In this document: one piece after another, positions 1-22,187 of the stretch
Layout: the number at the start of each line of letters is the position of its first letter
How positions within the stretch are numbered: the first letter of the stretch is position 1
Assembly: GCA_030248215.1 (NCBI GenBank)
Contig: JASANG010003910.1
Coordinates: forward strand, 124,001-188,000
DNA length: 64,000 bases
Origin: Enoplolaimus lenunculus
Taxonomy: Eukaryota
Direction of reading: 5' to 3'
The notes under the pieces: model-generated
What the model was told of the DNA's origin: nothing
The model's database searches: none
The model's input: only the letters and a program-made list of their open reading frames with translations
Position numbers and translations under genes: made by a program

Positions 1-1345
1 ATGATATTATTCAGTAGCAAATATGTTAAAAAGCACACAAGAAACTTGTTTCAAAACAAAATACAAATCAGGTACGCGGAGGAAATGACATTCGAAAACC
101 CAGCATGCTATCATTCTGTCGGGTTATTGTTCCGAGAACCGTAAAAAACATTCTTCTTTTAGATACAGCTTAAGTTTGCACAAATTTCTATAAACATTTT
201 CCTGAAAAACATCAACTACACAGACATTTTCATTGTTAAACTCGAGTTTACATCGAGCACGCCATATTGTGAATTGTGCATGTTGGACGATGAAGAAAAG
301 CTATTCTCTTTAATGGATCGTGAATATTTCGTCCCAAAATTAAATCCGAAATCGTTATTTTATTTACTCCAGCTACCTGTTGCAAAACGGGAGTAATGAA
401 AAACTAATTTCTTGTGCCCGCAAACAATAAATAAACACATGAACATTATCCTCCCGCCCTTCAATTCCATCCAAATAACAAAACGAACATATATTTGTCC
501 CATAAGACTGACTAGTGCTGTGATTAGTATACAATGACTTATGTCTTAACCTAAAATGGACGTCTCGCGCAGAGACGTCAACATATTTCGCTTTTGCCCA
601 TATCCATGATCGCTCGACTAAATAGGTTCTACTCCTAGCTCGTCTCGCCGAAAAACATGTTTTGGATGGATGAGCCTTACACACAGCGTGTATCCACATT
701 TTATACAATTTATTTGCCGACACCGCTTTTAAAGAACTTTTCACCAAAAAACCAACAAAAATTCCATCCATGCTAAAAGATGACTCAATCATTGCAATCC
801 GTATCTCAAATCTGGTACATCAATACGTCTCTAGTCGAAAACTGAACTTGCCGAAAGAAATGTTCAAAACATCTCTTCCAACTCACAACTTCGGTACCTC
901 TTAATATTCTAATATAAAACATTAAACGATTCACTTTCAGTCTAACAAAAATATTTGGGAAATTTATCCCGCCGTGACTAGGTTGTAAAAACAGGATATC
1001 CCTTCTAATAATACTAGCGGTAGACGGATACCACAACCACTTATAAACCACATTGATAGTTTTCTTCACTAGTTGATCAGGGGGTGTTACTAATTTTATC
1101 AAATAATTAAACATACGCAAAAAATAAATGTGAACAAGGCGGATTTTTCCAAAAACAGATACCTCAGGGCGCTATTCGCTGTCCAAGACTTGCAATTGCT
1201 TCATAGCACTTTATCCAATTTTCAGGAACATCGATTCCCTTCGAATCAAACCAAAGGCCATAAATTTTCACTCTTTCAACAATAAAACGTGCATATTGAT
1301 GGGGTACAAGTGCGTTCCTTAGATCGCCCAATAACAGTATCTGTG
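1..1345 (-). pseudogene. LINE ORF2 C-terminal part (RT end/thumb, zf-RVT, CCHC), frameshifted
   Basis: ORF 806..1120 (LFLQPSHGGINFPN) and ORF 373..792 (RDVHFRLRHKSLYTN...CSFCYLDGIEGREDNVHVFIYC). Reading down from 1345 gives ILLLGDLRNALVPHQYARFIVERVKIYGLWF. Confidence 0.88.
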
Positions 1346-1426
1346 AATACTTATAGCCCCGCCATGGGACCCTACACGAATGAGGGTCCCATGGGTGGGT
1401 CTTTTGTGTGACTAATAGTCATCAGA
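1346..1426 (+). repeat. Left TIR of the Polinton, with an internal 12-bp-stem hairpin (1362-1394)
   Basis: Matches the reverse complement of 17162-17243 (ccatgg-accctac-cgaatg-gggtcccatgggtgggtctttt-tgtgactaatagtcatcaga). CCATGGGACCCT / AGGGTCCCATGG stem with a 9-nt loop. Confidence 0.9.
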
Positions 1427-1487
1427 GTGACTTTAGGTAGCAATAATATATACGATGAAGTGTTAATACAAACAGAACTTACAACAA

Positions 1488-1812
1488 GGTAAAGCACGCC
1501 TTCCATGTTTAAATTGGTAAAGCACGCCTGCCATGTAGGAATTGATAAATTAAACTGGTAAATCACGCCCTCCATTTTAAATTGGTAAAGCACGCCCTCC
1601 ATGTTTGAACTGGTAAATCACGCGTCCAATTGAACACCTCGACGATTTTAACCCCACCCTCCCTTTCTAACCATCCCTTGGTGTACTATAAATTCGATAT
1701 AAAATTCTTTTCTCGTTCAGTGTGTAATAAACCGAATCGAGATTAATTTTCTCGTCCAGTGTGTAAAAAGCTGAACAAAGAACGTTCTCGTTCAGTGTGT
1801 AATAAACTGAAA
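1488..1812. repeat. Subterminal tandem repeats of the Polinton (~28-bp GGTAAAGCACGCC..CCATG units, then TTCTCGTTCAGTGTGTAA units)
   Basis: About five ggtaaa(g/t)cacgc copies at 1488-1625 and three tctcgt(t/c)cagtgtgtaa copies at 1710-1812. Confidence 0.8.
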
Positions 1813-2124
1813 CGAGACTTTAAACACGAATAATATTTATCATAACCTAACAAATCGTTTATGTACTAAAGTTCCGTCTAAGCATTTGAAATAATGAATG
1901 AGTGTTTTACAAATGAAAAACACGGGAATTGTTACAGTTTTGATAAATGGTATTATTTTTGAAACTGAGGCTAAGACTTTAAGGTAACACCATACGTTTG
2001 TATTCTTAAGTCTGCAGTAACTTTTGTGGTTCAGCATCTTCAAATAACGAATAGGTAAAACGTATGTTATCACCTTAAAGAGGGAAGAGGGAGGGTGTGA
2101 ATTACTTCCAAACACCAAAATATT

Positions 2125-2952
2125 TCATACCAATACCATTGTACCTAGTTTTTTCTTGAACTTTAATTCCAAAGATATTTTACCGCTACCATACTGCACA
2201 TGTTTTCCGAAAGCATCTAAGATTTCCAACCTCAATTTACTAGAATACAGCAGTTTACAGTCTAAAAATTTTATGTTTACTGGTTCGTAAAATAGAATTG
2301 GTTCTTTAATGTTCGTATTGGGAATTATAGTAAGGGTTTTTTCTGAATTATCCTCAATAAATGTAGTGTGTCAGCAGACTGCTACGGTATCGAGTGCAAA
2401 AATTTTGCTGGCTATGAGGCCTTCCTGTGTGATAATCACAGCAGCTTCCAAGAAAATTGCATTGCAAAAATCGGAACGACGGAAAACCCATATTTGCCAG
2501 TTCTTCAACGCGCACATTTTGATACCCACTCAACTCAGCAACTCTTCTGATGAAAGCAGTTTGCTGTGATACTTTAGTGTAAACGAGAGGCTCTTCCAAG
2601 TGATGAAACACCAACACCAGGGCAGCTTCAGGATGGCGAAATCCGTTAGTTGTAATATCGAAAGTGTCGTTGACACGTAGAACCGAACTAGAAGGAAAGG
2701 GCATGCTTTCAAATAAATTGGAAAGCAGACAAATCTTGAGAAAACAAGGTTTCGATGAGTTGAAACTGAAAATTTAGATGAAGCAAGATCAACTTTCTTT
2801 AAACTGATTTCCTGTCGCCGCGTAAGTCCTCGGTAGTGAGGTTCGAATCTAAAGTGATAAATTGGTCCATGAAGTTGGAACTTGACCGTCATTTCCGTTG
2901 TAGCATATAATCCTTCACCTATATGACACGTGTTGAGCAACAGTGACGCCAT
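2125..2952 (-). pseudogene. Polinton minor capsid (penton-like) protein, disrupted
   Basis: Manual translation of the 3' part gives TLTIIPNTNIKEPILFYEPVNIKFLDCKLLYSSKLRLEILDAFGKHVQYGSGKISLELKFKK, matching the Polinton mCP C-terminal pattern (I.I.D..G..V.F..G...L.L.F). Candidate start MASLLLNT at 2952; internal stops. Confidence 0.7.
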
Positions 2953-4038
2953 ATTGATGATGTATATAATAGTTGATTCCTTGAAAACCTTAACTGCGCA
3001 CGCCAACAAAACTGCTTGTGAATAGCAAGATGACGACTAATTCGACCACAGTAAATGCAACAAATAAGATAACGTGACATTCACAAATGATCTTCTAAAA
3101 ATCAAAGCGAAGGTTTTTATAGTCTAGAATGATGTTTATTTTCACGAAAAATTTATTGTCTCCAAGGAAATGCATCTCAGCATTAATCAGATTACAATTG
3201 GGAACAACAAATGGTACTGCCAAGATATGCTAGGTACTCTGGGAAATAGTACTTGGCAGTTGCTTGAAGTGACAGGTACAGACTAGCTCTATGTGCTGAT
3301 TTGAGATATCTAGGTTTTCGTACCGATGAGTACCAGTCAGTTACAGTCACTACAAAGGTCACAGATCTGTTAAATCAATTTTAGACAATTGGTGAAGCCT
3401 AATATTAGTTTATCGGACAATCAGAAAATGAAAGATATATAAGCAGAAGAGCAATAGAGAAATGATGGTTCATTTGCTGATACAGTGAATCTCTGTTCGA
3501 CAAAGAGTCGCTTATGCCACTGATTTGCCTAAAGTAAGTTGCGCAATTTATTGTATTGTGATCATTGCTAAGGTCTTTCAAATTTTAAATTTTCATAACA
3601 AATGGCAGTCATAGCCCCTATGGGCTATAACTAATGCATTTTTTCGAAAAACAAGACACTACTGCCTCTAGAATCTTCCCAAAATATCTAATGTCAGGCC
3701 TATCACATAATACATATCTGCATTGGGTGTCACATCATCCAACATTTCGCAGGTATAAGCAGCAGGCACAAGCAACTTATCCTTAAAAAATTAACTATCC
3801 GCCGGTATAAGCAGCAAGCAGAGCAACTTATCCCTAAAAATTAGATAAACTAATCTTAAAACCAGCAGAAAGGCTGTCATAGAAGGCCTACTTCAGCAGC
3901 GATATTAAAAATAGAACTTAAAACACTCCCAATTGCAGAAGAGGATAGCAATATTGTGTGGTAAAATTAAAAAAACAGCTGGTAGTTATAGACTAAAATT
4001 CACAAAATTCTGAACATAACAGCGCGGTGAAAAACTAT

Positions 4039-4527
4039 TCAAAAAACAAGGCCACAATGGTCACATCCAATTTCAAGAATAACATCTGCCGAGTCATCTG
4101 CAAGATGCAGAGGAACAGCGTCAACTAAGTTATGACAATTTGGGCGTCGTTCAAAACCTATGAATTCTTGTTCCGGTTCCACATCTGAATTTTCAGCGTT
4201 CGCTCCAACGTTATCCGGTACAGCATTCCTAAAATCGAGCACGATTTTTGAAAATTTAAGCTTCAAATATCTAACTTGCATTGCTCTTAATTGCAAGCAG
4301 GGGTTCTGAATCGCACAACCACAGCCAGGGTTGCAACAAAAGTTTGATTTGGCAAAAAATTACAGTTTGGCCTTGGATTTGGTCGTGAAAAGCTTAATAC
4401 CGCAATGTCTTAAAATATATGTTTTTATCAGGTCACAAAGCTCAGAACTGAAGCTTGGAAGGGTACGAAATAACTGCGTTTGCGAAACACATAGATTTGC
4501 TAGAATAATAAATTTTACTAATTTCAT
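4039..4527 (-). pseudogene. Unknown accessory ORF, ~162 codons with one internal TAA; possible signal peptide and Cys cluster
   Basis: MKLVKFIILANLCVSQTQLFRTLPSFSSELC...KAKL*FFAKSNFCCNPGCGCAIQNPC runs in frame into ORF 4039..4296; TAA at 4360-4362. Confidence 0.35.
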
Positions 4528-4696
4528 AATTCAGTTCTCCAAATTACGAGTGAATTGATGTAGTATTGCTTGCTACACTTTCATATATATTATTTTGGGA
4601 TACATTCCTACAGGCAGAAAACACTAACATCTCAACATCATTTGGATTTGGCATTGGTTGCAGCCTTCTTTGCAATCACCTTCTAGTTCGTTGACG

Positions 4697-7269
4697 ATGG
4701 ACAGCGTACCAGAAGTCAAAAGTCTTGCCATAAGAGGGGTATCTGGTAAAACTTATCTGTTGTGCAAAACGTCATTAACAGACAAAGGAAATAATGGTCA
4801 AATTTATGTTGCGAAATGTTTGAACACCAACACTGATGTACTCGTTAAGAAAATTCTGTCAGGTTCGCTGGATTATGCTAATGGAAAATCGCTCGAATTA
4901 CTTGTTTTGGAACATGTAACAGGTGTAAGTACTTGGTTAATTAGAGATAACTTGTCACCAGGTTATAACTTCAAAAGTAGCACATGAAGATAAAAAATGC
5001 AACTGTCTTAATTAGTAGAACTTTTATGCTCTTACATAGTTCCCATTGTCATTATAAAACCTGCCGCAAAAGCAGTTGTCACTCCGCCCGAAAGTGCACC
5101 ACTGCAATAAATGAATTCAAAGTTAGTTTTCAAACAATTTCATTAAGCTTCGCCAGTCTGAAAAACAAAGACACATTTTTAACATAAATTATACAGTTTA
5201 GCAGGCATGCGAACTAAATATTCATCTCAGAGGGAGTGAGTTCGAGAAATACAAATTATAGCATTATTACAGTTAGGTTTCACGGTTTATAACGTTCCCA
5301 AAACAGCAGACATCACAACACTACACCAACAAAGGAAAGGAAGTAGCATATCATGCAAACACAAACACATCTTGGCTCCTAATTACTAGGTCACAACTGT
5401 TTTTAACGCTTTCCCTAAATAGGTATTAATTCAAGTTTGTCCGAACGTTGCAGTGCCATACTCTCTCTTAACATAGCTTAACTTACACTTGGCTATCAAA
5501 ACAGGAGATGCTGCTACAGTTTTGATCACTACGCGGAGTGCTCAATGAGGAAACGTACGGTTGTTCAGTAGAAGATGTAGCCGAGCTAACATAATGAATT
5601 GTGGTAGTCCAAGGACTGACCGTAGCGGACCTAAATTCACCAAAGTATATAGATTATCCTAAAAATCTGCACCTCAAACTACGCACCTGAAGGTAATTTA
5701 GCAATTATGAGGTGTGTGATGTGTTAGTATATAGCAGTATTAAGCGCTACATTCGCAAACTAAAACGTAAGTCTAAAAACTTAGGTATCGCGGAACATTT
5801 TCTAAAGATTTGAATATTTGCGAAATTGATTTTTTTCAAAACAATTTTCAAATGCAAAATCCTATCTTGCTGTCGTAGTAAGACAAATTGAGTTGTCCAA
5901 AATTAAGGGATGTTAGAGTTAGGGTAACGTAAAATAGGCAACTAAGTCCAAAACTATCAAGCAACTAAAAGCAAATAAATATTGCTAAAACAAAACGCAG
6001 ATAGTACAAAGCACACCACACATACGAACTAGTTGGATGAACAAAAAATATTAAATAAGGAAGTTTTCTTAGAATTACGTGTGAAAAGACGTTATTTGCG
6101 AGCTGTGTACTTCACTCGATGATTGTGTTTGATCACTCGATTGCAAAACATTAGTTACAGTGCTTGAGGTTTTGCAAAATGATGTAGCGCTAATTGATGT
6201 TGTGCCAGTTATAGTTGAAGTTGACAGCGTAGTAATAAAACAAACTTCAAAGTCAAATTACTCAAAAACTTAAAATCTCACGTTTTAACGGCTTTTTCAC
6301 CAAATGATGCTGTAGTACGGTGTGAATCTGTGGTTGAATCAGTGCGTGGGTAAACATGTCCCCAAATTTTCACGACAGGATGTTTTGTTGTATATCGCTG
6401 AACGTATCCACGTACAATGATGTTCCGGTAGATGAAAAGCTTAGCTGTTACTCTTTGAACTACTTCAATATTTTGATGTGTTGGAAATATGTAGCGAACC
6501 TTATAATTTTCCACTATTGGAGATACCTTAAAAACTACGGCTGGCGTTGTTGGAGAACTATGCGAAATATCAAAATATGTGAACATCGGACGACAGACAT
6601 TATTTGGTGGCTTGCATAGACAATTTGCCGAATACTGAAATTTTTCAGGAACCAAATGTTGTTTTGCTTGAAGATTACGCTATCATAAAAGCAAACAATG
6701 GTTCGGTATGCTCCAATTTGATATTTCCGTGGTCACCACAAGCCTGTGATTTTGAAAAGTACTGAACACTAAATGGTCCTCTCTGCTATGAAGACGTGAA
6801 AATTGTAATGTATCAAATTTATAGTTGCGCAAAGCGTTTAGGCGAGAATGGAATAATACACAGAGATTTAACAGCTGCTAATGTGGTTTATCATTCTTGG
6901 TACCGATATCCAATTTTGATTGATTTTGATGGGGCATTTCCAGCATACCAAGGAGAACTAATCGAACTGGGGCCAAGACCACTCGAGTGTACAATGCCCG
7001 AAGTCCGAGGACAAAACTTCTACGCTACATGCTCGTCTTCTGTGCTAAATACGGTCCAGATAGGTCAACTAACTCATTTCTTACTCTGTGGGACGTATCG
7101 ACGGCACAATTTTTATTCAAAAAGTATTCCTCTAACAGCTTTCGATTTTATTCAGAAATACACTGATGAAAATAAATATCGACGTTTAAGGTTTTCAAAT
7201 ATTGAAAAACATCAGTTTTTCAAAGAAATGAAATGTGCTTACGAAGGATTCCTTGAAACTATGTTGTAA
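4697..7269 (+). pseudogene. Two-exon Ser/Thr protein kinase (exons 4697-4924 and 6649-7269; ~282 aa; one in-frame TGA at 6763-6765)
   Basis: Exon 1 has KGNNGQIYVAK...VLVKKI (Gly loop and VAIK lysine) and ends at ggt|GTAAGT. Exon 2 starts TTTTTCAG|gaa cca aat, giving a phase-0 join EHVTG|EPNVVLLEDY, and contains IIHRDLTAAN, LIDFD and MPE. Confidence 0.88.
5290..6655 (-). pseudogene. Putative multi-exon type I membrane protein gene (ectodomain, Ser/Thr-rich stalk, TM), antisense inside the kinase intron
   Basis: 125-aa ORF 6278..6655. An S/T-rich frame ends at cac ac|GTAATT (6079/6078). An open S/T-rich exon 5630-5487 (TTTAG|...|GTAAGT, 144 nt, phase 2-2) follows. Acceptor TTTAG|g gaa at 5414 (phase 2) leads into a hydrophobic stretch (DVFVF../CMICYFLSFVGVVL*CLLFWERYK, with a frameshift and stops). 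Confidence 0.5.
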
Positions 7270-7361
7270 TGTTTTTCCTATATTTTTTATATTTTTTCAA
7301 ACAAAATGAAATTTCAGATTTTGTATAAAAATATAATACGTAAATATAAGAATAACTAACC

Positions 7362-8539
7362 ATGGCAGCAAGCGAAAGGACGAGCAATAACATAATAATC
7401 GGAGCAAATGGTCCTTTTCCGCAAACTGAAATAAACGGCTATGAATGCCACGATCTTGCTGAGTATGCACAGGTCACCGATGCTCAAATGTTTATAAGCA
7501 CCATCCCAGAAATTCAGAACCATAATTTTAATGGTATCGTATCAAATCCGTTTCAACAAGTTCCTGAATTCACCTTGGATAGCAACGTAACACAAGGCAG
7601 AACACCTATAACGTCAAGTCATTGCATAGAAGCTAATATCGTAAACACTACATCATGTTTGTTTAATTGGAGTGAAGCTGCTGACTATCTTAAATAAGTG
7701 TTAGCAGCTCAAATGTCTAATCATGTTTCGGAGGTCGCTCAAAAGTATTGGACCGTTGATATCACAAAACATCATGAAATCGATAAACAAATTACAAACA
7801 ATATCTTGAATGCAACTATGGAACAGCCAGCATCAACGGCTAAAAAGAGTTTTGTAACGTCTGTTTGTACCGAAAACCATGCGAAGAGAATTGTCACTAT
7901 TACTCTAAAGGAAATTTATGTGGACATTCGTCTAATCATAATTATTGCCAAGTGTGCGAAGGTTACCACTCATACCGTACTATACAGAAATTTCTCCATC
8001 GAGGAGGATCGTTTTGCTGCAGGTAAGTTTTTCGCCTTAAACATAAAGCTTAAAGTTAAATTTTTCATTTCTTACGCTAGAAAACGTATGTTAGCTTCTC
8101 ATAAAAATAAATATGCCACGGATATCTGTTGAGAGATACCTAACAGGAGGGCCCACAAAGGTTGTCACACCTTTATATGGCTAAACTTCGTTTCTATACT
8201 AGCTGCTATAAGTTTTCTTTACTGGTGTGGTTGCTTCGACCACAGCTACCTGAACCCTCATATAACTCTAATTGGAAATGTTAATTTTTGTTGTGCAGTT
8301 GGCATAAACCAGAAAACAGGGATGCGAGCATTCGCACTACAACAGTAAGCTGTTGCAGCAACAATCAGCTTAATCCCTGCATACACGTTCGCCTGATAGG
8401 AACATCATGTTGCAATCATCGTACCAACTGTCCATTCTACTGTAACTTGTATCCACTGCTATCGTTAAACAAACCACTGCAAGATACTGAAGTTTGTTTT
8501 CCATCACAAAAAAAGAAAATGGACAAAATATCAGAATAA
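7362..8539 (+). pseudogene. Two-exon accessory gene with a Cys/His-rich C-terminal region (exon 1 7362-8022, intron 8023-8298, exon 2 8299-8539); one stop and one frameshift
   Basis: ORFs 7362..7697 and 7698.. are one frame split by TAA. A shift in the A-run at ~7842-7846 opens CNVCLYRKPCEENCHYYSKGNLCGHSSNHNYCQVCEGYH...FCC. Donor ag|GTAAGT and acceptor TTGTGCAG|t are both phase 2, joining to SWHKPEN...CCSNN...CCNHRTNCPFYC. Confidence 0.62.
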
Positions 8540-9012
8540 TTTTATCCATGATGGTTGTTCTACTGAACTGTTTGTTAAGAAATTCTTTTTACAATATACA
8601 GCATTAGGAACATTTATAGACTTAAGGTAGTCAATGAACTGCTGAGTGTCGGTAGGTACATTTTTCTCGTATGGTAGGACTATATAGCGTATCAAATCTA
8701 TTATTGATGAAAAATTGTGGCCTTGAATTGATAACCTACCATTGTCATTGATGTTACCTTTTCGTAAAGAATGTAAAGTATTTTTGCCTTGTTGCCGTAT
8801 GCTTTAGGAAATAAATTTAAAACTTGTTCAAAAGTCGTCTGCTTTTCGCTCACCAGTTCAGGATTCACAAGGTCATAAAGTTTTTCATACTTCTCTTGAA
8901 CACTGGAGTTCGAATTCAAAATTTCAAAAGCCTTTTCTTCAAAACCAGAAGGGTTTTCTGGTAATTTTGGCAAAGGCTTTCCTTCATCAAATAATACTTT
9001 GACATTAGGCAA
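8531..9012 (-). pseudogene. Conserved uncharacterised Polinton protein, frameshifted near 8760
   Basis: VLNLFPKAYGNKAKIL, then after a frameshift NDNGRLSIQGHNFSSIIDLIRYIV...QQFIDYLKSINVPNAV...W. This resembles the conserved Polinton ORF usually found near the ATPase (P....KA..L / G.l...g...S.I.DL / F...L...NVP). Confidence 0.68.
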
Positions 9013-9325
9013 AAGCTTTTAGCAAAGGTAGTGCAATTTTAACGATATTTTTGACGAATTTTATATTATTGAAAATTAAGCGATTACGAGAAATAAGAGA
9101 CAAACTTCGTTCAGACAATTTTTGCAATAAGTTACGATTTTTCCTTAAATAATTTTTATTTACCTTTGATAATTCCAGATTCGAATATGCTAGATTGTAC
9201 GCTATTTCAGTTAAGCGCTTAACAATGGCAGGATGTGCCGAAATAATTTTTTTGGCTTTCTGCTGGTTAGAAATGTGTGACAATATTTCTAAATTGCCAA
9301 TGTTTGATAAAACAATATTCGACAT
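9005..9325 (-). CDS. Small basic conserved Polinton protein (~106 aa) downstream of the ATPase
   Basis: MSNIVLSNIGNLEILSH...LTEIAYNLAYSNLELSKVNKNYLRKNRNLLQKLSERSLSL matches the L.E.A.N.L.gn..Ls......L pattern of the small Maverick ORF. It overlaps the start of the next gene. Confidence 0.65.
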   Translation of the reverse strand: MSNIVLSNIGNLEILSHISNQQKAKKIISAHPAIVKRLTEIAYNLAYSNLELSKVNKNYLRKNRNLLQKLSERSLSLISRNRLIFNNIKFVKNIVKIALPLLKAFA

Positions 9326-9390
9326 ACCGTCAGATTGATAGATTTTGCGCAATGTACATCTATATATAGAAAATTTCTAATATTAAATTA

Positions 9391-10055
9391 TTACAAAATA
9401 AAAATCTCTTGCACCGTATCTGAAGGAAGTGATGACCGAAATTTCAGTAAACAGTGATTATAGGGACATAAGTTAATCCACAAAAACCCAAAAGTTGTTC
9501 CTGTAAAACCTGCTCATAAATTTCCAGAAACTTTTTAGTTTTGTTTGGTGCAATACTTTGCCCTAGAGTATTCACCTGTCGTAAATCTCTACGACAGGCC
9601 ATTAGAAATATGTGGGTCATTTGTCTGTTTATAAGCACGCTAAATTTTCCTTTTATAAACAGTCCTTGAAAAAGACAAATCACGGAAATATTTCGGTGAT
9701 GACTATAAACAGTGAAAAGTCTCATGCACTCAGCGGAATTTATAAATTCATGTTGCAGGTCATCGAAAACAAGAGCTGTATTGTTATTTGCCCAGTATTC
9801 ACTGTCATCAATAACTTCCTTTGGTAATCCTTTGTGAAAGGTGATATTGCGAATTTTCAATTTCAGTTTGTCATACGCAGGCTGGTAAACTTCATAGCAA
9901 AACAATATTTTGTCAAAATTTGTCAAAAAGAAATTTTCCGTCAGCAGACAAAAGCACAAATCCGTTTTACCGGACATTGACTCGCCCGCTAACAGTATTC
10001 TGCTGTTAGGTCTGATCCGAAGATCTGTTAATATTTCTTTTCTAAAAAAGGTCAT
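9391..10055 (-). pseudogene. Polinton genome-packaging ATPase (A32/FtsK-HerA type), with a C-terminal frameshift
   Basis: Walker A AGESMSGKT, Walker B LVFDDL, LFTVYSHHRNISVICLFQ. After a frameshift near 9485 the frame reads FLWINLCPYNHCLLKFRSSLP...IFIL* (stop 9391-9393). Confidence 0.93.
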
Positions 10056-10516
10056 AACTAATAGGATTTTTGGTTTACTAAACTTATTTGTATATAGTCT
10101 CTAAAACTGAAACGTTAATTATTTATGAAACAGCGCAAGCGCTGCTCCACCCGAGCACTGTAACCCCCCTTCCGCCCTTCTTCCTGCCCACCCTCTCCCT
10201 AGCACCAGCCAGGGAGAGCGGACAGAGAGGCATGGAAGGGAAGGACGAAAGGGGTAAAGAGGAAGGCGGTACAGCCTGCAGAAACCCTAACTCAAAAAGC
10301 TGTTGTACCAGACCCTTGTGATGATAAGGTGCACCGAGAACTGATGCTTAGGTCATAAGGCTTTCGCCGAGACCCGTCGCGTACCACAGCAAATAATGCA
10401 CCAAAATCATCAGGTCTGTACATAGCTCATCGAACCTACTTAATACACACATGAAGAACAACACTCGGTCCCCATATACATGCACTCACAAACACACTCA
10501 TTAATACAAATTTAAT

Positions 10517-11045
10517 CTAATTATTATAGTATGGAGTTCTGTTCGACTTGAAAACAAGATTTGTTGACTCCTCGCACAAAGCATACAACACAGTATCTTG
10601 TGCAATCGGAGTTTCAAACGTAAGCTTTATCTTTAAGTAGCCCACTGTTGACTTCTCCACGAACGACGAACAACCAATTGAATTGGAAGCCGTCAGATCC
10701 GCAATCCAAATTGTATAACCGCCAGGGAAATCATTATAGCCAATATCTATATTACGATTAATAAATCCTAAACCGTTGAAAATTAGGTAATAATCAAACG
10801 CAAAGTCATATTCTGAAAACTTAGAAGATAATCCTTCTGATGTGAAAACAGGTGTTTCGTTTTTGTAAAGTGAAAAATTAGTTAGACTATTGTGAATAAA
10901 CTCGAAGGGATTGAGTGTGATATCAGTGCCATCCGTGGCTCCTTTTTAACCATAAATACATACAATCGTTTAGTCATACTCCCTGCAGGAATTAGGGACC
11001 ACTGATGACTAGTATCATTCTTGCGAATAATATGTTCGTACAAGG
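10517..11045 (-). pseudogene. Polinton major capsid protein (double jelly-roll), 3' half only; not in the ORF track
   Basis: Manual translation: IPAGSMTKRLYVFMVK / GTDITLNPFEFIHNSLTNFSLYKNE...DFPGGYTIWIADLTAS...GYLKIKLTFETPIAQDTVLYALCEESTNLVFKSNR. This matches the Polinton MCP C-terminal motifs (NPF.F.H, GYT....DLT, G.L.....F). Similarity is lost above ~11045. Confidence 0.88.
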
Positions 11046-12355
11046 GTTACCGAAGAGGCGTTTAAAAGCCTCATCAGCAACCCTTACAATGAACTAAATT
11101 TCAGCAGCTTCACTATTTCACGAAACAAATATAATGCCGAAGTGTTCAGCTTAACTTCTACTAAACGATTTAAATTTACCTTGAATAAGAGACTTCTATG
11201 CAATGACTTGACGACTCGTTGCATTGGTGACAAGTCTGTTAAACGCAACGAACTTGCTTAATTCGTACCCACATTTTGATTCTGCGAAATGCTGATTACG
11301 TTGGTTGAATGTGCTACTATTTTTTATATTACTACTTTATGAAGGTTATAACTCTTATCGATGGCTATAACTTCTTGTTTGTACTTAGTTATATCTACTT
11401 GGAGTTAATTGTAACTACTTGCAGCTGATTACAACTACATGCATGGAGTTATAATCACTTGCAGGTAGTTATAACTACTTCCTGATGGTGATTATCTCTT
11501 TCCTTTATGTTTGTGCAGTAGTGTCTTGCACAACAAAATATACGCATGTGCAAAATATTGAGGGGGAGGTATATTTCAATATTAGGTCAAAGGTGTGGTA
11601 AAATTACGTTTTATATGACAAAATTGAAAAATGCACTGTTTTTTGTATAATTTTGAAACCAGATATTAACCTGCTGCAAGTAAGAAAATGCTGAAATTTA
11701 GCCATGCATGGTTGTATGAACCAGTGCAAATTTTCGAAGTACCCCTTCTCTTGTCATTATATAATTCATTTTTGAACTGAATTCTTCAAAATTAAAGTTA
11801 ACTCCATGACTTTGTTTTTTTGAGCGTTTTGCTTTCTTTTTTTCAATTTTCTACGGTAGTTATCAACATTTGATTTCATACCTAAATTTGGAATACGATT
11901 AATTGATCCAACAATCTTGGCATCATCATGTTTCTCAATTTGGTCCACAACTACGACACTATCATTCCTGTCAGTTTGTTCCAAAATCATGACATCATCA
12001 TCATCATCATCTGTATCCGTAACAATTATAACATCATCATCAACTGTGTCGGTTTGCGACGAAACAGTTTCATTGTCAGCAGAATATTCATTTGAAACAA
12101 TAGGTAAGTCATTCGCGTTTGTCACAACTGAAATCAGGCATACCTTGCCTAGACAATGGCTGATATGCTTTGGATCGATAGCCTAAATAGACATATTAGT
12201 TAAAGGAAATGTGATGACCAATATTTAGATCAAGAGGCATTCATGGATATGTAATGGTGCTTTCGCTATCGAACCATTAAATTTATTAGTACTTTTCGCG
12301 TAACCTAATACCTGTTAGACAGCTATTGCAAAAATATCTCTGTAAATATGTATAT

Positions 12356-12477
12356 CAGGGTGCAACCGGAGGTGAAAAACACCGGAGCTGAAGCCAAACG
12401 TCAACGAAACTTGCCGAAGCCGGAGGCCGATTTTCTGCTGGAGCTGGATACGAAGGCAGACGTCCGGTTGTACCCTG
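12356..12477. mobile_element. hAT-type MITE (family A, short copy)
   Basis: TIR CAGGGTGCAACCGG / CCGGTTGTACCCTG; 8-bp TSD ATGTATAT at 12348-12355 and 12478-12485. Confidence 0.85.
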
Positions 12478-12679
12478 ATGTATATGTCGACTTACTATTA
12501 CTTTCCATAAGTGAATTAATGTTGAGGTCCATTTGGTAATATCACTGTTGCTTCGTATGATAATTTCTTTGGGCTCCGTATAACTGTTGCACTAAGTGCC
12601 ACTATGAATTTTGTCCCATTACGTGCATCAACAACAAAATGATTTCTGCATAACATACAATCGCTCTGGTTTGGTTCAC

Positions 12680-12775
12680 TGATGATGATGATGTTGTTGT
12701 TGTTATTGTAGTTGTTATTGATGTTGTTGTCGTTGTTGTTGGGTGTTGTTTTTGTTGTTGTTGTTATTGTTGTTT

Positions 12776-12810
<35 letters not shown>

Positions 12811-13560
12811 GATGATGATGAGGTCATTGCTAATGATCGGGCTTCCATCGTAGCATTCACTTGTGTTTACATCGCTGTAGAATTGGTGATTGTCAATCAT
12901 TAGTTCGTTAAAAGCAAAGGAGCCATTACAGTCCTCACTATTGCTGTTGTTGTTGCTATTGTTGTTGCTGACGTTATTGTTGTTGTTATTTCTGAAGCTG
13001 TAGCTATTGTTGCTAATGTTGCTGTTGCTGCTGTGGCTGAAGTTGCAGCTATTGTTGCTAACGTTGCTGTTGCTGCTGTGGCTGAGGTTGCAGCTATTGT
13101 TGCTAACGTTGCTGTTGCTTCTGTGGCCGAGGTAGCTGTTGCTGAGGTTGCTGACGTTGATGTAGCCATGGTTGAAGTTGCTACTATTGTTGTCGACGTT
13201 TTTGTGGCTGAAGTTGTTGCTATTGTTGTCGTCGTTGTTGTTGTTGTTGATGATTTCGTCATTGCTAACGATCGGGCTTCCACCGTTGCATTCACTTGCG
13301 TTTACATCGCTATAGAATTGGTGAGTTAATCATTATAGTTCATTAAAAGCAAAGGAGCCATTACAGTCCTCACTATTGCTGTTGTTGTTGCTATTGTTAT
13401 TGCTGACGTTATTGTTGTTGTTTCTGAAGTTGTAGCTATTGTTACTAATGTTGTTGTTGCTGCTGTGGCTGAAGTTGCAGCTATTGTTGCTAACGCTGCT
13501 GTTGCTGCTGTGGCTGAGGTTGCTGTTGCTGAGGTCGCTGTTGCTGCTGCCATGGTTGAA
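12680..13560. repeat. GTT/GCT trinucleotide-rich minisatellite with a duplicated ~420-bp unit
   Basis: (gtt)n at ~12780-12810. The blocks cattgctaa-gatcgggcttcca and aaaagcaaaggagccattacagtcctcactattgct each occur twice, ~435 bp apart. Confidence 0.85.
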
Positions 13561-15867
13561 ATTTATACTATTGTTACGGGGCGTCATTTCAGGCCACCCA
13601 CTTCAAAAAGTTTCTGCTTCTGTTTCTTAGTTACTGTCGCCCCTTGTGCAAACTCCAAAGTGTGTGGTCGTCATAGTTTCATTGAACGACAATTTTGGTT
13701 GCAATTAAGACACCGTTTTCAAAGTTTTGTTGTCGATAGTATACTTTTCGTTTAATTATACTTTTCGTTTAAAGTTTGAATATTTTTACAAACAGAAACG
13801 GACGCATGCGCAATATTGTGGTGTTGATATCAAGGTGACATTCTGCTCGCCTGCGGGTGTCAAAGTTTGATAAATATTACTCGCAACTTTAAGTTTTAAA
13901 AGATTTTATTGCAAAAATGTTATCGTTCACGCAGAAAAAAGGAGATATTTCGTTTAAAATACAAAAGTTCGACCACTAATGAGTCTATTAATTACTTTAT
14001 AAAAATGGGTGCAGTACAACTATAAAAGAAGATGTAGCACCAGCTTTTAGCTTCAGTTTGAAAAAGTGAAATTTTCCGAGAGTGCAAGTCAATAGTGTTT
14101 GTAAGCGTTTGTTTTTCTGTTTTTTGTATACATCAATTGATTTTAACTGAAAGTTCATGCGGTGGTTATCCTATACTTACTGGTAAGTCAAGTTTAATGT
14201 TTCAAAATACAGATTAATTTATTAAAGAAGCCTAGATGGGCGCTTCACTACTTATCAATTGGTTCTGAAAATAATTTTAGAAACTTTATTATCATAGAAA
14301 AATTGAACATTGACTACAGACTTTTGGGTGCTTTACGATTTTATCTTGTGATGTTAATTCGAAATTAGGATTTTGATTTCGCCATTAAAACAATTGCCAT
14401 AGTAACCGAAACGTAACACTATTGTTGTTGACGTTGTTGTGGCTGAAGTTGCTGCTATTGTTGTGGCCGAAGTTGCCACTATTGTTGTTGCTGACGTCGT
14501 TTTGGCTAAAGTTGTAGTTATTGTTGTTGCTGACGTTAATGTTACCATGGTTGAAGTTGCTACTATTGTTGCCGACGTTGTTGTGGCTGAAGTTGCTGCT
14601 ATTGTTGTTGTTGATGATGCTGTTGCTGTGGTTGAAGTTGTTGTTGTTATTATTGTTGTTGTTGATGTTGTAGCCATGGTTGAAGTTGTTGTTGCTGCAG
14701 ATGTGGCTGCTGCTGCTGCTGACGAGGTCATTACCTTCATCATCACTTTCGATGTTAATTAAAGGTACTATATTATTCATATTTTTAAAATAGCTAAAAA
14801 GTTGTAACTTTCCAACATATAATCCGTGTGTTCAGAGCTAATGCATATTATCATCTATACCTAACCAGCAGCATTGTCGACTTTTGCCAAACCTGGAACT
14901 GGATATCCGTCACCTAACGACATATGCTGTTTTTACAAATTGTGTGGTAGCCTGTAATAACTTTGTTTATAAATTTTTCATGGCAGTTCTTAAATTTCTG
15001 ATTGCCAAGATTTATGCAACAATAATCCTGAAACCTAACTTTTAGAGCTCCAAAATTTTTAAGAAATTATTATATTCAATAACTTCAACAAAAATATTTA
15101 CTTAAAAGTTTGAAAACGCCTTTTTAATCCAAATCACGAGTTATTGTTATGGCGTCTTTGTCAATGTTTTTGTAAAATTATTGATTAAAATATTTATCAA
15201 AAATATTTACAAAAGACGGATAATAAAAACTCGTGATTTGGATCTAAAAGGCGTTTTCAAGCTTTTAACTAAATATTTTTGTAAAATGTTTCCAAAATTA
15301 GAAAATATAATAGCTTGAATATAAATTTTGTGCTTTAGAAACTAAATATATTAAGTATTAAGAAAAGCTTCATAACGGTAGGACAAAGCTTGCAAGCTAG
15401 CAATACATACAGATAAAAACATGGGCGGTACTGTTGAAGAATCAAAAAAGTTTTGCCTTTTAATAGTGCAAGAAAGGTATACGTCACTACCTATAGATGA
15501 CAGAACCTATACTAAAACATAAATATAGACTTATCATACAGTACGTGTAGTAAAATTTGAAGTTTGGCATAGAATTTTATGTAGTACGGCAAGGCAACAC
15601 CTCACTAAACTTTTATGTTAAACCGGAAATAACCATATTTGTTTTTCCAGAATTGCTAGAGTTCAACTGATAAGTAGGATGCAACAGGAACTAAAATTGC
15701 TGGAGCCGCAGATCAGCATCATTAACAAAGTTGTGTTTATCACAAAACTCTTTGGCAATATCAATTAGACACGTAAACTTGGTTGGCTGTAACGTTTTTG
15801 CGTACATATTGAAAGGCGAAGGTTAAAAACTAAACGCAATTGCTGGCAGCTGAACTATACAAATGAG

Positions 15868-16588
15868 TAAATTCCCAGAAAATTATAGACGTTTTAGTAA
15901 AACGTTTTTGTAACTGTTATCACTACGTAAGCGACGCTACTAAGATTGACGATTAAAATGTCAATTAATGCCAAGAAATATCCTTCATAGAAAATTAATC
16001 AAACAAAGGTTTAAGGTTTGATAGCAATGTACGCGACGCCACGTAACCGTGTACTAACAAGACTGACGGTGGTCCGTACATAGAACTGGAACTTAACAGT
16101 AGTATAAGCATATTTCTAAGCGTAAGCCTAAACCTAAGCCTAAGCGAAAATATGAGCCTATACCTAAGCCAAAGCAAAAAATTAGTCTATAGCTTACTCT
16201 ATCACAGTCCCTCGGGAAAGGTTACAAAAAATTAAATTCCTAGAAAACTATACACGTTTTAGTAAACAAGACGTTTTTCTAGCTGTTATCACTAGGTAAG
16301 CGATGCTACTAGGATTGGAAATTAAAATGTCAATAAATGCCAAGAAATATACTTCATAGAAAATTAATCAAGCAAAGGTTTAAGGTTTGATGTCAATGTA
16401 CGGGCGCCACATAGCCGGGTACTAACAAGACTGACGGTGGTCCCTACATAGAACAGGGTCGTAACAGTATAAGCATATTTCTAAACGTAAGCCTAAACCT
16501 AAGCCTAAGCGGAAAGATGAGCCTATACCTAAGGCAAAGCAAAAAAAATGGTCTAAAGCTTATACTATTACAGTCCTCGGGAAAGGTT
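15868..16588. repeat. Tandem duplication of a ~365-bp unit containing a CCTAAG/CCTAAA-rich interspersed repeat
   Basis: 15868-16222 and 16234-16588 align throughout. A related reverse-oriented copy lies at ~28965-29097 (cagggtcgtaacag...aagcatat...gtctaaagctta). Confidence 0.85.
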
Positions 16589-17161
16589 CCAATCCTGTTC
16601 TATACATGGGCCGATTCGATTGTTGAAATCTTCCCGGCCCTCTAACACCTCATTTTTCTCTATTTGCACAAACACACAAACACTTCAGAAATAAATTTAC
16701 TTTTATTTTTACATAAGTGTTATTCAAATACATTCAATTTTATAGATGATGGTATAACAGTAAGGTTTCTTACGCTAAACCAATGCTTAAGCATGCTCAA
16801 TAGTACCTGTCAATGGTTGAGTCCAATGTTATGTTTTAAGACAACAGTTCTAGTTCACGCATATTCCTAAACGTAAGCGTAAAAATAAGTGTTAATATCT
16901 ATGCCCCCAACCAAAAGATTCGACAAGCATCATTGTTTCTTCATTCAAATTGGTTGAAAATTGAGCCTGAAAGCAAATTTTGAAATTAAATATTAGGTTC
17001 AGTGGTTAAAATACAGTGGGCATAAATATAACTAGTGTATATGCAACAGTTTTTTGTGTATTAACATAAGTATGAGTAGTTATAGCCCCGTCATGGAACC
17101 CTACGCGAATGCATTTACCATATTCCTTTAAAACGTTAGCCATCAATGATTATTGTTTCTG

Positions 17162-17243
17162 TCTGATGACTATTAGTCACATAAAAGACCCACCCATGGG
17201 ACCCGCATTCGCGTAGGGTTCCATGGCGAGAATTATAACTACT
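17162..17243 (-). repeat. Right TIR of the Polinton
   Basis: Reverse complement of the left TIR; ends in ACTACT, followed directly by the TSD TCTGTG. Confidence 0.9.
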
Positions 17244-17890
17244 TCTGTGTTTTAGTTTCCTTTAGTCGGCTGCCAGAGGCCTTTTGAAATTATTCAAAAA
17301 CATCAAAAACCACACTAACATCCGAAATCCTGCTTAGAAATATATTAGTGTGGTCGGCAAACTTAGTTTCTCGGGGTTAATGCCGTATAGTGGTATCCCC
17401 GAAATTCTTGAAGATATTCGAAGATAATGAGCTACCACTTCCGCTGTTATGATATATAATAACGGCGATAAGGGACACCCTTGTCGAATTCCGTGGAAAA
17501 CATGAAGAAATTCTGACTTAAAACCATTAACTATGATAGATGATCTTTTGATCATGTTTAAAAAGTTTTCACCAAAAATTCATGACCCTAAGTGTCTCGA
17601 AAATAATCGACCACTCCACCAAATCAAAAGCGGCTTTGTGATCAACGGATAGCAGCAACGCCTTTGCGTTGCTTTCATTGGCATAATGAATAACAGACAT
17701 GACATGTACAACACTGTCTTGGATAATTCTGTCGGGAACCGAGCTTGTCTGATCCGGGTGGTCTAAAGTTTTCATGGCAGATTCTAATCTTTTTGCCAAA
17801 ACTTTCGTAAAAATCTTATAATCTATATTCAGCAACGTAACTGGCCGCCAATTATCGCGACACGTTTTCGCTCCATTCCCTTTATATAAT
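17244..17890 (-). pseudogene. LINE ORF2 reverse transcriptase core, frameshifted
   Basis: NWRPVTLLNIDYKIFTKVLAKRL, HPDQTSSVPDRIIQD, LLSVDHKAAFDLVEW, GIRQGCPLSPLLY, degenerate catalytic motif KFADHTNIF. Confidence 0.93.
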
Positions 17891-18276
17891 GTGTCATCCA
17901 CGTTAAAATGTGCGCACTAATGTAAGAAATTGTCCAACCACCCGGTAGGGATCTGTGTACATATCGAAGCTGCAACTAGGGTGTAGGTACAATTTTGTGC
18001 GGTACGTAGACACTGTTAATTGTCCCGACACTGTCCGAAGGTCAGAACAAAAGGTTAAAAATTAAGAAAAATAATTAAGTGTATATATGTGTTTGTGTTG
18101 TTGTTATGTATGTTTGCGATGCTATATGAACACAGTGCAATATGTCTTTACGTCCTCCTTAGGGACTACCGGACTTTATAGTGGTCTCAGAATAGAGTGT
18201 GTTAAAACGACATGGGGCCTTACTCAGACCAGGACAAATTCTTATAATAGCGCACGCATTATACCGTAGATGACCC
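17891..18276. mobile_element. 386-bp non-autonomous TIR element (GRG-like termini, Sola2-like), 5-bp TSD
   Basis: Termini GTGTCATCCACGTTAAAATG and (reverse complement) GGGTCATCTACGGTATAATG. ATAAT is duplicated at 17886-17890 and 18277-18281. Removal restores the LINE frame ITLLYKGNG...DNWRPV. The superfamily is tentative. Confidence 0.82.
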
Positions 18277-18921
18277 ATAATAGGGTAATAACACCATCAT
18301 ATGCAGAGGAATTAAGCTTAAGATCATGCAAGAAAGCTTTGTACATTTTACACAAAAATTCAGATAATATTCCACAAAACAGCCAATAGAATTCAACAGG
18401 AATACCATCGTACACCGGCGTCTTTTTACCCTGCATGGATTTAATAGCGCTCGCTATTTCAACTGACGTAATGGGTCCCTCTAAAGTATTTTTCCACCTC
18501 ACTCAACTTGGAAAGACCATTTTGTGCCAGAAAAAATGTGAGATCTTCTCCGCTTGTCCCTTCCGATCTGAATACGTTGGAATACTGCTCAGTAATTTCA
18601 CCTAGAACTGCATCTGAGTCTGTTACTAACGTGCCATCAGACCTTTCGATCGAGCTTATATGCCTGGCTTCCCAGTTCTTACGTTGAAGAGACTTGGCTG
18701 TTGCTAACGAGGCATTGTCATTTACCTCACTGCTGTAATAAGTATTATGCCTGCAAGAAGCAATATAAAATGCGTTCAATAATTCGATTTCATTTTTTAG
18801 CTTTTGCTTTTTAAGAACCGATCTGAGATTCGGATATTTGGATACTGCCATATCAGCATTTGTACATTAATAACTTGGCTCTCTACTGATTTCCTCAACA
18901 TGTCGTGTTCTTTAGCTTTAT
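18277..18921 (-). pseudogene. LINE ORF2 EN-RT linker and RT domain 0
   Basis: ISSIERSDGTLVTD...EITEQYSNVF; LEGPITSVEIASAIKSMQGKKTPVYDGIPVEFY (the KSPGPDG motif). Confidence 0.9.
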
Positions 18922-20259
18922 GAGTCGTCCACTTTATCTTGCGCCCGCGTTGAGGAAAATGAATCGGTGTAAACCCGCATGGAAAATTGCAAAAGTTAAA
19001 TTTTTAATAGAATAGGAAATTGAAAAATTGTTTTAAAATTTAACATTTCAGTTTCCCACTACGGTTCTAAAGTTGTCCCGTACTAGTAAATTGTAGTTCA
19101 AGATTCTTATCAAATTACTAGTACGGTCACTGTAAATTGACCTCAGAGGTCAATTAAAATCACAAAATTTTAAACACATGAGTTGATTTATTTAATTATA
19201 ATAATAATCGACGGCAGTGGTAAATTGAAATTTTAGACGCAGATGATTATATTTACCCGATTTTCGAATAAATTTTCAATAAATTAAAAGTACATAAGTA
19301 TATTTTCCCCACTTAGATTTCTAAAATTTTAAGGCAAAATTAAAAATTTCTACAAATCAGAAAGGTTAAGAGTTCAACAGCAATGTGTTCGTCATGTGTG
19401 GCCTCGTGGGTGGTCGTGCAGGTGTAGGTAAGTATGAAGTTTAAAGTATATGTCATTATTGATGGCACTACCGAAAAGGTAACCAAGGATCCAACACGCC
19501 TAAACACATCTTTGCTTAAAGCCTAAGCGTTAAACATTTCTTTGCTTAAAGCCTAAGCGTTCTATATTTTAATTGATGCGGCCAATGTTACTTGAAGCAG
19601 AAGGCCAATGTTACTTTTAGTTGTTTTAGAAAAACAAACATAAGTTTTTTAATTACGGCAACATGATTAATCCGGAACCCGGCTGTTCTGCTGAGATTGG
19701 AACACTGCGCTTTAATATGCGACACTATGAACTTTTACTTGATACATATTACATTTGACAACATGCAGTTGTTAAATGTATATAAACTTCCGGAATATGG
19801 CTTAGGTAAATAATTCTTGAAGCAGAATGCCAATGTTACTTTTAGTTGCATAAACAGTAGATTAAGCGTATTCCTAAACCTAAGCGTTGCAAAATGTGTA
19901 CCAAAGCCTAAGCCTAAGGAAAAAACTGTAATTTAGAATCAAATCCTACTTTTACAGAGCCATCAAAACCTTGACGTCCCTACAAGTAACATGGGCTTTG
20001 AAAGTAATACATTCACTATGAACTTTTCCTTGATTACATATTCCATTTAACAACATGCAATTGTTAAATGCATATAAAACTTCCGGAAAATGGCTTACGT
20101 AAATAATTCTTGGAGCAGAAGGCCAATGTTACTTTTAATTGTTTTAGAAAAAACAAAGTTTTTTAATTACGGCAACATGTTTACTCCGGAACCCGGCGGT
20201 TCTGTTGAGATTGGAACACTGCACTTTAATATGCAACACTATGAACTTTTACTTGATAG

Positions 20260-21923
20260 AAACGGAATAATCGTGAAGCTAATGGGGGAAGTGGTAAATG
20301 GCTGAACCGAAAATTGCGGTCGAATTCAATTTATAATTTGCCGAATAACAGCAGAACTCCAGGATTCAGATTTGAAAATGGAACATCACAAACGCCTGAC
20401 CTTATTCGTGGATGTGAAGACCAGTTCGATAGGAGATTGTTGGATACATTGACTAATGCAAATGCAACTAACCTGGACACCGGATTGGTCACTGGGCTAG
20501 CAGCGGCCGTACTTCCTTGCTGTCGACGAAATCTAAGAGTAAGCGAATGTTATAAATGTTTATAAGCACCCGTGTCAAAAAATGAATTTTGCCTGTATAA
20601 AAACCACAACACTAAAAATACAGAGTTGGCAAAGCTGCTAATTCTAGTGCTTGTAAAAGCATATATAAACTATTTTACAGATTGAGTGATGCGTATTATA
20701 AGAATGGACAGCCTTAAATAGTCTACCTTAAATTTGAACAGTTAATATCCTCTCTGACAACCAAAAAACAGCCTTAAATAGTCTACCTTAAATTTGAACG
20801 GTTTATTCTGAAAATTCAGATAAACAATGGTTTTTGAGTGAAGCGAAACTCCGAGCGAAGCTCGGAGTCTCGCGAAGCGTTTTATGTTTTGTACTTGGGG
20901 GTCGAAAGGTGGATGTCCGTCCGTCCGTCTGTCCGTCCGAAAAGAATCTCAGGAACGGCTAAACCGATTTTGATAAAATTTTTTTGTTTGAAAGCCAATT
21001 ATCCTGGGGTGTTAACCTCGCATTGAGGTTTTAAAATTTTGAGCCGTTTATTAGCTACAGGCTAATTTGCATAATTAATTAAGCATAAATTAGGACTTTC
21101 CACAATATTTCACTAATTATTACAGTTAGAAGCAATCTAATTTTAGCATTAAAGGGTTTTTGGTGCAAGAAATCTGCGTAGACTGTTTACAAACCTCCAA
21201 AACCGATAATTGAGCAGTTAGCTAATAGATAATTTGCATATTAACATAGTTTATAAGCCTAAATTAGGACATTTTACAATATTTCACTAATTATTAAGGT
21301 TAAAAACAATATAATTCCAGCATTAAAGGGTTTTTTGGTGCGAGGAATTTGAATAAATAGTTTACAAACCTCCAAAACCGATAATTGAATAGTTGGCTAA
21401 TAACAAATTTGCATATTAGCTTAATTCAAAAAACAAAATTAGGACTTTTTAAATTATTCCAAAAATTATTAGAGTGGCTGAAGGGTTTTGGGTGCGGGGA
21501 ATCCGAGGAAATTGCTTACAAACCTCCAAAACCGATAAATGAATAGTTAGCTAACAAGTAATTTGCATATTACCTTAATTGCTTACGTGCGTTCGAGCTT
21601 CGCTCAATAAATGTAGTCCCACTACGACTGGTTAGGTTAATTTTCAACAAATAGGTGGGCATGCCTGGGTGATTGAGCCACAGGAGTTTAGCTCGTCTTG
21701 CTGTATTGGACGGTGCATGGGACATGGAGGGTTTTATTCACTGGCGCATTCGTTGTACGCCTAAATAATGATGTCCACAGATGAAGTACGTAAAACTGGC
21801 AAAATGCCATGTTGTGTGCCAGTGGCTTTCGGTCCACTACTGGTAACAATCCGAGAGAACGCTGATGAAGAAGTGTTGAAATACCTTGAAAGTATCGTTG
21901 TTCGACAGTGTGGCTGCCTCTGA
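20260..21923 (+). pseudogene. TGF-beta superfamily ligand (cystine knot), two exons 20260-20538 and 21636-21923; one in-frame TAA at 21762-21764
   Basis: Joining aga|GTAAGC to TTAG|gtt (phase 0) gives ...RKLRSNS...RGCED...LPCCRRNLR|VNFQQIGGHAWVIEPQEFSSSCCIGRC...YA*IMM...MPCCVPVAFGPLLV...LESIVVRQCGCL*. All TGF-beta hallmarks are present (CC, W.I.P, CxGxC, PCCVP, CGC), plus an RxxR furin-type site. The 5' exon boundary is uncertain. Confidence 0.9.
20831..21633 (+). mobile_element. Helentron-associated interspersed element (HINE/DINE-1-like)
   Basis: Inserted in a T-run. Subterminal IR GAGCGAAGCTCG (~20853) / CGAGCTTCGCTC (~21594-21605); (GTCC)n microsatellite at 20915-20939; core ATCTCAGGAACGGCTAAACCGATTTTGA; three ~170-bp tandem units at 21085-21570; 3' hairpin GTAGTCCCACTAC then CTGGTT. 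Confidence 0.82.
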
Positions 21924-22187
21924 GAGGTTTTTTGTTCTTGTTTCGTTTTTTATTAAATTGCCGTTTTACATCATTTTTTGTTAATTTTACAACGAGTAGA
22001 ATTGTTATGATTTAAAAGACCACACACGTTTATTGTTAATATTGCAAGGAATAGAATTTTGGGTCAATTTTACTTCCTTTGAGGTCATATTTAAAAGACT
22101 ACAAAATTGTTAATCTTTCACCAGGTGAAGTGGGAAATTGAGAGTTTCATTTTCCACAACGCGGGCGCAAGATAAAGTGGACGACGC

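Follow-up and report, generated by a model that had tools for sequence, protein, structure and literature searches.

A decayed Polinton of Enoplolaimus lenunculus with a putative spliced gene for a classical protein kinase

The window (the whole 64,000-nucleotide stretch of DNA that was analysed) contains a 15.9-kb Polinton/Maverick element spanning positions 1346 to 17243, with a protein kinase gene inside it. The element is flanked by identical 6-bp target-site duplications (TCTGTG, 1340..1345 and 17244..17249). It is bounded by terminal inverted repeats at 1346..1426 (+ strand), a decayed AGTAGT-type end with two mismatches from AGTAGT, and at 17162..17243 (- strand), ending in ACTACT. The inverted ends exhibit 94% identity over 67 nt (left end versus 17162-17228). 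Mavericks are defined by (AGT)2//(ACT)2 ends and 6-bp duplications in the accessible text of PMC8097293. The element had inserted into a decayed LINE (1-1345 and 17244-23000, - strand), within its reverse-transcriptase region, whose frame continues across the duplication. With the inverted ends, the duplication and an A32 ATPase all present, the original prediction that the kinase is carried by a Maverick is borne out. The end sequence of the Polinton recurs at 17073-17111, and a unit of about 170 bp with AGTAGT...ACTACT ends (17076-17243) at the right terminus resembles a miniature non-autonomous derivative.

The ORF at 9444..10055 (- strand) corresponds to a truncated A32-like DNA packaging ATPase. 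Pfam, PDB and word searches by themselves gave no match for this ORF; it was recognized in the Atlas (score 0.98, recognition 2899), where Pox_A32 is found on 28-43% of the members of its top clusters. Frameshifted ORF pieces at 2128..3584 (- strand) and an ORF at 10517..10945 (- strand) were picked out by eye. By their motifs, the former is likely a minor capsid (penton) gene, and the latter likely comes from the major capsid gene and represents its C-terminal part; neither had a family match (2128-3584 was searched against Pfam and PHROG). A basic ORF at 9005..9325 (- strand), likewise without a family match, is presumably, by eye, a core/PM-type Polinton gene. A scan of 69 segments of at least 52 aa (repeat region 12650-14850 excluded) gave no pPolB, integrase or protease, an absence that is soft because the ATPase escaped that scan as well. 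The element is likely an internally deleted copy. Its structural genes are read from the minus strand, and the kinase and the gene adjoining it from the plus strand. Long Thr/Ala-rich mucin-like repeats, arranged in three related blocks, occupy 12519-14831 (- strand). At 4042-4527 (- strand), a pair of Cys-rich acidic ORFs split by one stop is possibly a further zinc-binding regulator. An insulin-like reading of these ORFs was rejected, with no Pfam match and three single-base gaps relative to a 97% identical copy of the element described below.

The kinase gene consists of two pieces. The first (4697..4924, + strand) comprises 76 codons from the ATG at 4697 and exhibits what we take, partly by alignment, to be the Gly loop (its first Gly replaced), the beta3 Lys and the helix-C Glu. 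The second (6649..7269, + strand) comprises 206 codons followed by the stop TAA (7267-7269), and contains the hinge, an HRDLTAAN loop, the DF motif, a TMPE sequence and the C-lobe. Between them lies a predicted phase 0 intron of 1724 nt (4925..6648, + strand), with the donor GTAAGT at 4925 and the acceptor TTTTTCAG ending at 6648. With 4924 joined to 6649 the reading frame is maintained, for 282 codons plus the stop. The original prediction of a compact kinase in two pieces about 1.7 kb apart, with canonical splice words, HRD and a divergent Gly loop, thus agrees with what we find. An acceptor-like CCTTCTAG (4679-4686) lies 10 nt upstream of the ATG at 4697; for this reason the 5' end of the gene is not fixed, and there may be an additional upstream exon. 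An AT-rich imperfect palindrome (74%) at 7271-7356, with a TATA-like stretch, separates the stop of the kinase from the ATG that follows, and AATAAA is absent downstream of the stop as far as 7430.

Piece 2 matches CaMK1G and CDC7 (E-value = 1e-6 for each), and the Pfam Pkinase family with an E-value of 3e-6 and a score of 27.2 bits, which is below the cut-off of 31.7. Piece 1 alone has no match in Pfam and no significant match in PDB. Its frame heads the 1188 stop-free segments of the window when these are scored with an N-lobe profile made from 11 unrelated kinase domains, with a weak E-value of 0.056. When piece 1 and piece 2 are joined by a spacer of X, the score against a generic full-domain kinase profile rises from 48.8 to 64.9 bits and the start of the match moves from profile position 67 to 18. 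None of 131 other window segments (maximum 55.4) and none of 200 shuffles (maximum 54.7) reaches 64.9 bits. The N-lobe features are therefore weak in piece 1 alone and significant in place. Among eight donor/acceptor offsets tried, 4924/6649 is the sole in-frame pair with a GT donor. The chance of finding both splice words in phase, within three codons of the junction fixed by homology, is about 1e-5 at the rates within the element. On these grounds the stretch 4925-6648 is very probably removed by splicing.

The gene adjoining the kinase (7362..8023, + strand) exhibits a YECHD sequence and two CxxC motifs, with a donor at 8024, and is broken by one stop and one frameshift. The similarity of several far contigs to 7933-8024 ends at 8024/8026, at the donor. 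Oncoid is a class of adintovirus accessory genes described in the accessible part of PMC8502044; 7362-8023 fits that description and is likely another regulatory gene of the Oncoid-like kind that undergoes splicing. The predicted intron of the kinase contains a candidate antisense gene (6078..6586, - strand), a 102-aa ORF followed by an S/T-rich stretch in another frame. A hydrophobic stretch near 6050-5990, also out of the frame of the ORF, follows, and the region 6586-5990 is possibly a decayed nested membrane-protein gene. Pfam, PHROGs and pairwise comparison gave this ORF no support, and its best Atlas score (0.84, recognition 1478) is at chance level.

Other copies of the element were compared in contigs from three DNA runs (two samples of one study). 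A near copy, about 96-97% alike, spans 3300-10300 including the 1.7-kb gap in all three runs, and no contig joint in them skips the 4925-6648 gap of this copy. Its piece 2 has no indels, and it is damaged elsewhere by extra letters at 4556 and 6561. At the latter position, inside the intron, it diverges into unlike letters in what looks like an insertion. Contigs in all three runs skip 4380-4912, most of piece 1, and are deletion derivatives of the element. The depth of the near copy (about 210 in run X2, against 10-25 for minor contigs) is not read as copy number.

The window copy carries a premature TGA at 6763..6765 that is private to it, being absent from the 97% copy in all three runs. 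The original prediction took this TGA as the only lesion and the DFD sequence as a variant of DFG. Neither view stands: at the third residue of the DF motif (6928..6930), where the window copy has Asp, all contigs covering the site differ in all three runs (1, 2 and 2 contigs) and the two relatives described below have the usual motif, so that DFD is a second private lesion of the window copy. Between the window and the near copy, piece 2 exhibits 23 differences, 6 silent and 17 not (pN/pS = 0.77; neutrality not rejected, p = 0.36), and 9 of the 23 are at third positions (p = 0.35). The window copy is thus a fossil, its pN/pS being not different from neutral, and as read it would make no working enzyme. 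The reach of conclusions from it is limited.

More diverged copies exhibit a different pattern. Two far contigs (records 9 and 10) are similar to the window over 6838-6935 and continue in frame. In the far paralog, 22 of the 32 visible differences fall at third positions (p = 5e-5), a hand count that omits unlisted differences (9/16 for record 10, 5/5 for record 9 and 7/7 for record 8). Such a bias shows apparent purifying selection on the diverged paralog. The catalytic loop lacking the usual Lys, discussed below, is retained in the far contigs, where the changes are silent. A further far contig (record 8) is about 85% identical to the window over 47 nt (6637-6683) spanning the acceptor. Upstream of the acceptor its sequence departs from that of the window and contains, by eye, a nearby in-frame stop; its C-part would therefore also need a splice. 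Piece 1 was found in none of the far paralogs and relatives examined.

One contig, with the depth of record 8 (159.7), connects 6683 with 9604 in the ATPase; a second connects 7221, at the kinase end, with 7933 in the zinc-finger gene. Since the matches concerned are only 22 and 30 letters long at 80% likeness, a class often spurious, the linkage of the kinase with Polinton genes in diverged copies is suggestive rather than proven. The original prediction depended on such linkage and on a junction supported in a paralog; a far contig with the acceptor region, a stop upstream of it and the 22-letter ATPase match speaks for both. Taken with the third-position bias, these observations make it likely, with good confidence, that the kinase was a resident gene under selection.

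A search among 1.84 billion representative proteins returned 12 proteins at an E-value of 0.001. One of them, P0001, stands apart (36% identity, E-value = 2e-28), the next best having an E-value of 5e-8. A profile search added P0016, one of 2 matches among 527 candidates, which is 35% identical over 97% of piece 2. Both are unannotated single-contig Logan proteins and are the sole family members found (35-37%). They score above the Pfam Pkinase cut-off (56.9 and 54.5 versus 31.7 bits). Both lack the N-lobe; their first Met lies inside piece 2, after 6 residues in one case and 30 in the other. A gene caller that ran into the same intron would give such starts; truncated contigs would also be an explanation. 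In a tree of 21 rows the three family members form one clade (support 100/99) with long branches and no resolved sister. They have in common HRDL[ST]xxN, xTMPE in place of the usual APE, and NTxQ[IL]G. The catalytic-loop Lys of Ser/Thr kinases is absent from all three and is replaced by Ser or Thr, for which reason the substrate class can only be inferred. The subdomain-IX Asp is also absent from all three, with Asn in its place.

Other searches added no member to this family. A word-based search with piece 2 alone gave none among 44 candidates. Viral contigs were scanned with the capsid piece and the ATPase as well as with piece 2, P0001 and the two-member alignment, in each case without a relative, and a metagenome scan with the three-member alignment likewise gave none. 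One metagenome match to P0016 (L001) lies in a bacterial locus and was discarded as due to chance. A tblastn search against phages gave 10 generic kinase matches at 27-32% identity.

By sequence profile, the best solved relatives are AMPK (E-value = 1e-10), SNF1, CaMK1 and MELK (to 4e-9), all of the CAMK group. A fold model from the 12-sequence alignment reached a pLDDT of 80 (34 for a single-sequence model), and the C-terminal part is accordingly modelled with a eukaryotic protein kinase fold. Compared with PDB, the model is closest to Pim1 and AMPK (TM = 0.72, 15-18% identity); over the cellular CAMK-group kinases the fold alignments give 14-19% identity. The rank of Pim is partly circular, because the alignment behind the model held fish kinases that we take to be Pim-like, and Pim is not among the best 60 of 80 sequence-profile matches. 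Profile and fold together point to cellular Pim1/2, AMPK/SNF1, CaMK1 and MELK as the nearest kinases. The family shares an xxQ[IL]G motif and a long hinge with the Pim-like fish kinases. It differs from the cellular CAMK-group kinases in lacking the catalytic-loop Lys and a regulatory tail and in forming its own clade.

Among viral models (BFVD), ranks 1-3 (E-values from 7e-10 to 4e-9) go to the kinases of African swine fever virus (ASFV) and of baculoviruses (PK1). With 299 aa for the Ser/Thr kinase of ASFV and 273 aa for PK1, both are bare catalytic domains of a size similar to the 282-residue Polinton kinase. However, they come from much larger viruses, and their identity to it (21-23%) is no better than generic; a common origin would be no more than a possibility. 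The original prediction called the kinase probably host-derived. The comparisons do not show this: the nearest cellular kinases match in short stretches of 25-40%, the sole full-length relatives are unannotated, and the fold matches include viral kinases. The gene looks like an old resident of the Polinton lineage rather than fresh host cargo.

A kinase gene bearing an intron inside a Maverick has a parallel in nematodes. KRMA, according to the accessible text of 10.1101/2022.07.12.499685, is about 430 aa long, carries a ubiquitin-like domain at its N-terminus, gave no InterPro kinase match, and resembles CtkA/HipA/MavQ; introns are reported for nematode Maverick cargo in the same source. The Polinton kinase, in contrast, is a bare domain of 282 aa with a Pfam Pkinase match and a Pim/AMPK-like fold. 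It is surrounded by capsid and ATPase genes and does not lie in a high-GC block. No ubiquitin-like domain of the KRMA type exists in the gene as read, in which about 25 residues precede the Gly loop and upstream of which a further exon is possible. The best 49 PDB matches listed are all classical kinases, with no fold of the CtkA/HipA/MavQ kind among them, and no nematode-named protein occurs among 10 looked up of the 12 database matches. These features support setting the kinase apart from KRMA, which is described as a different fold class. The suggestion in the original prediction that the kinase was acquired independently of KRMA gains strength from the same two features, the classical eukaryotic kinase fold and the lack of a ubiquitin-like domain.

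A literature search that covered few subscription papers and no supplementary gene tables did not turn up any account of a Polinton from an animal with a classical kinase gene. The kinase statements in the accessible portions of PMC8502044, PMC11071296, PMC11131425, PMC3671162 and 10.64898/2026.07.28.741278 describe no such Polinton gene. The nearest report is a "receptor tyrosine kinase" in a figure key on Polinton-like viruses, in the accessible part of 10.64898/2026.06.19.733378.

The gene might instead be a passive passenger: a host gene of the CAMK/Pim group, taken up with its intron, that hitch-hikes or moves between species and has no role in the element. The nematode wasp/krma cargo is reportedly a comparison case for such movement. 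Host-type intron signals fit a passenger, since the host kinesin gene of the window also uses, by eye, GTAAGT at one donor and TTTCAG at one of six acceptors; so do the nearest named sequences, which are cellular CAMK-group kinases, and the intron-bearing cargo of nematode Mavericks (10.1101/2022.07.12.499685, as far as accessible). No cellular kinase is near, however, the best generic match having an E-value of 5e-8 against 2e-28 for the orphan relative. The GC content of the two pieces (0.37-0.38) is near that of the ATPase (0.355) and is not that of a high-GC block, and a mere passenger would sit poorly with the third-position bias of diverged copies and with the synteny that they show between the kinase, the ATPase and the zinc-finger gene. 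We consider this account improbable.

It also seems unlikely that the product is a pseudokinase or decoy, kept for binding as a substrate trap or scaffold with little or no phosphate transfer. The family-wide loss of the catalytic-loop Lys, the change of the subdomain-IX Asp to Asn, xTMPE instead of APE and the altered Gly loop could all be read in this way. On the other hand, the beta3 Lys, the helix-C Glu, the HRD Asp and the loop Asn are all kept, the relatives have the usual DF motif, and an unrelated fish kinase (P0012) also lacks the loop Lys. Catalytic activity in the lineage is quite probable. The odd catalytic loop offers a clean test of the motifs that kinases require.

That there is no intron, a continuous viral kinase having been split by a 1.7-kb insertion or piece 1 being unrelated, with splice words present by chance, is very unlikely. 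In its favour, introns are absent from the core genes of intact vertebrate Mavericks (PMC8097293, in its accessible text), and the gap 4925-6648 contains an antisense ORF. Against it, the two splice words stand in phase where homology places the junction (about 1e-5), the gap is common to the 97% copy, a far contig retains the acceptor region beside different upstream DNA, and both orphan relatives are cut at a compatible place.

The reading that we favour, and hold to be reasonably probable, is that of a decayed Polinton with a spliced gene for a classical kinase of 282 residues, a long-resident regulatory gene whose product likely phosphorylated host proteins in favour of the replication of the element. 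Host Pol II would transcribe the plus strand, opposite the capsid and ATPase genes, and the spliceosome would take out 4925-6648. The product would be a bare catalytic domain without regulatory tail and so likely always on. Pim is such a constitutively active bare catalytic domain. The kinase likely acts with the adjacent Oncoid-like zinc-finger gene, pushing the cell towards DNA synthesis or survival, and the two would form a likely early module.

The role in steering the host is argued by analogy, large DNA viruses using kinases of their own, and we regard it as somewhat better than an even proposition. The pim-like and CDK-like genes of Teratorn provide a parallel: in the accessible text of PMC5601938, an integrated virus-transposon retains proliferation kinases of host type. 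Teratorn differs in being a 180-kb herpesvirus-piggyBac fusion with recognisable cellular homologues, and is likened here by description only (PMC5601938, same text). More tentatively, the Polinton lineage may own an old family of spliced, Lys-less Pim/CAMK-like kinases, possibly from a large DNA virus, which would form an early module with a spliced Oncoid-like gene opposite the capsid strand, a further gene lying antisense in the intron.

On this more tentative reading, a polintovirus of 16-20 kb would steer host signalling with a type of kinase known from large DNA viruses. A second, independent Maverick kinase of the classical kind, selected and dependent on host splicing, would indicate that small virus-like elements run spliced regulators of host signalling. 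Spliced regulatory genes would also bear on whether Polintons have a real infectious cycle.

Outside the element, the host kinesin gene, which we take to be KIF3A-like, lies at 26300-30215 (- strand) with GT-AG introns (Pfam Kinesin, E-value = 2e-12). With TTTCAG, the nematode consensus, at one of its six acceptors read by eye, a rhabditid nematode seems an unlikely host. An abundant CCGGAA-rich inverted-repeat family of MITE-like appearance occurs within 35400-62900, and a GC-rich tandem array with a 21-bp unit occupies 37741-38537.
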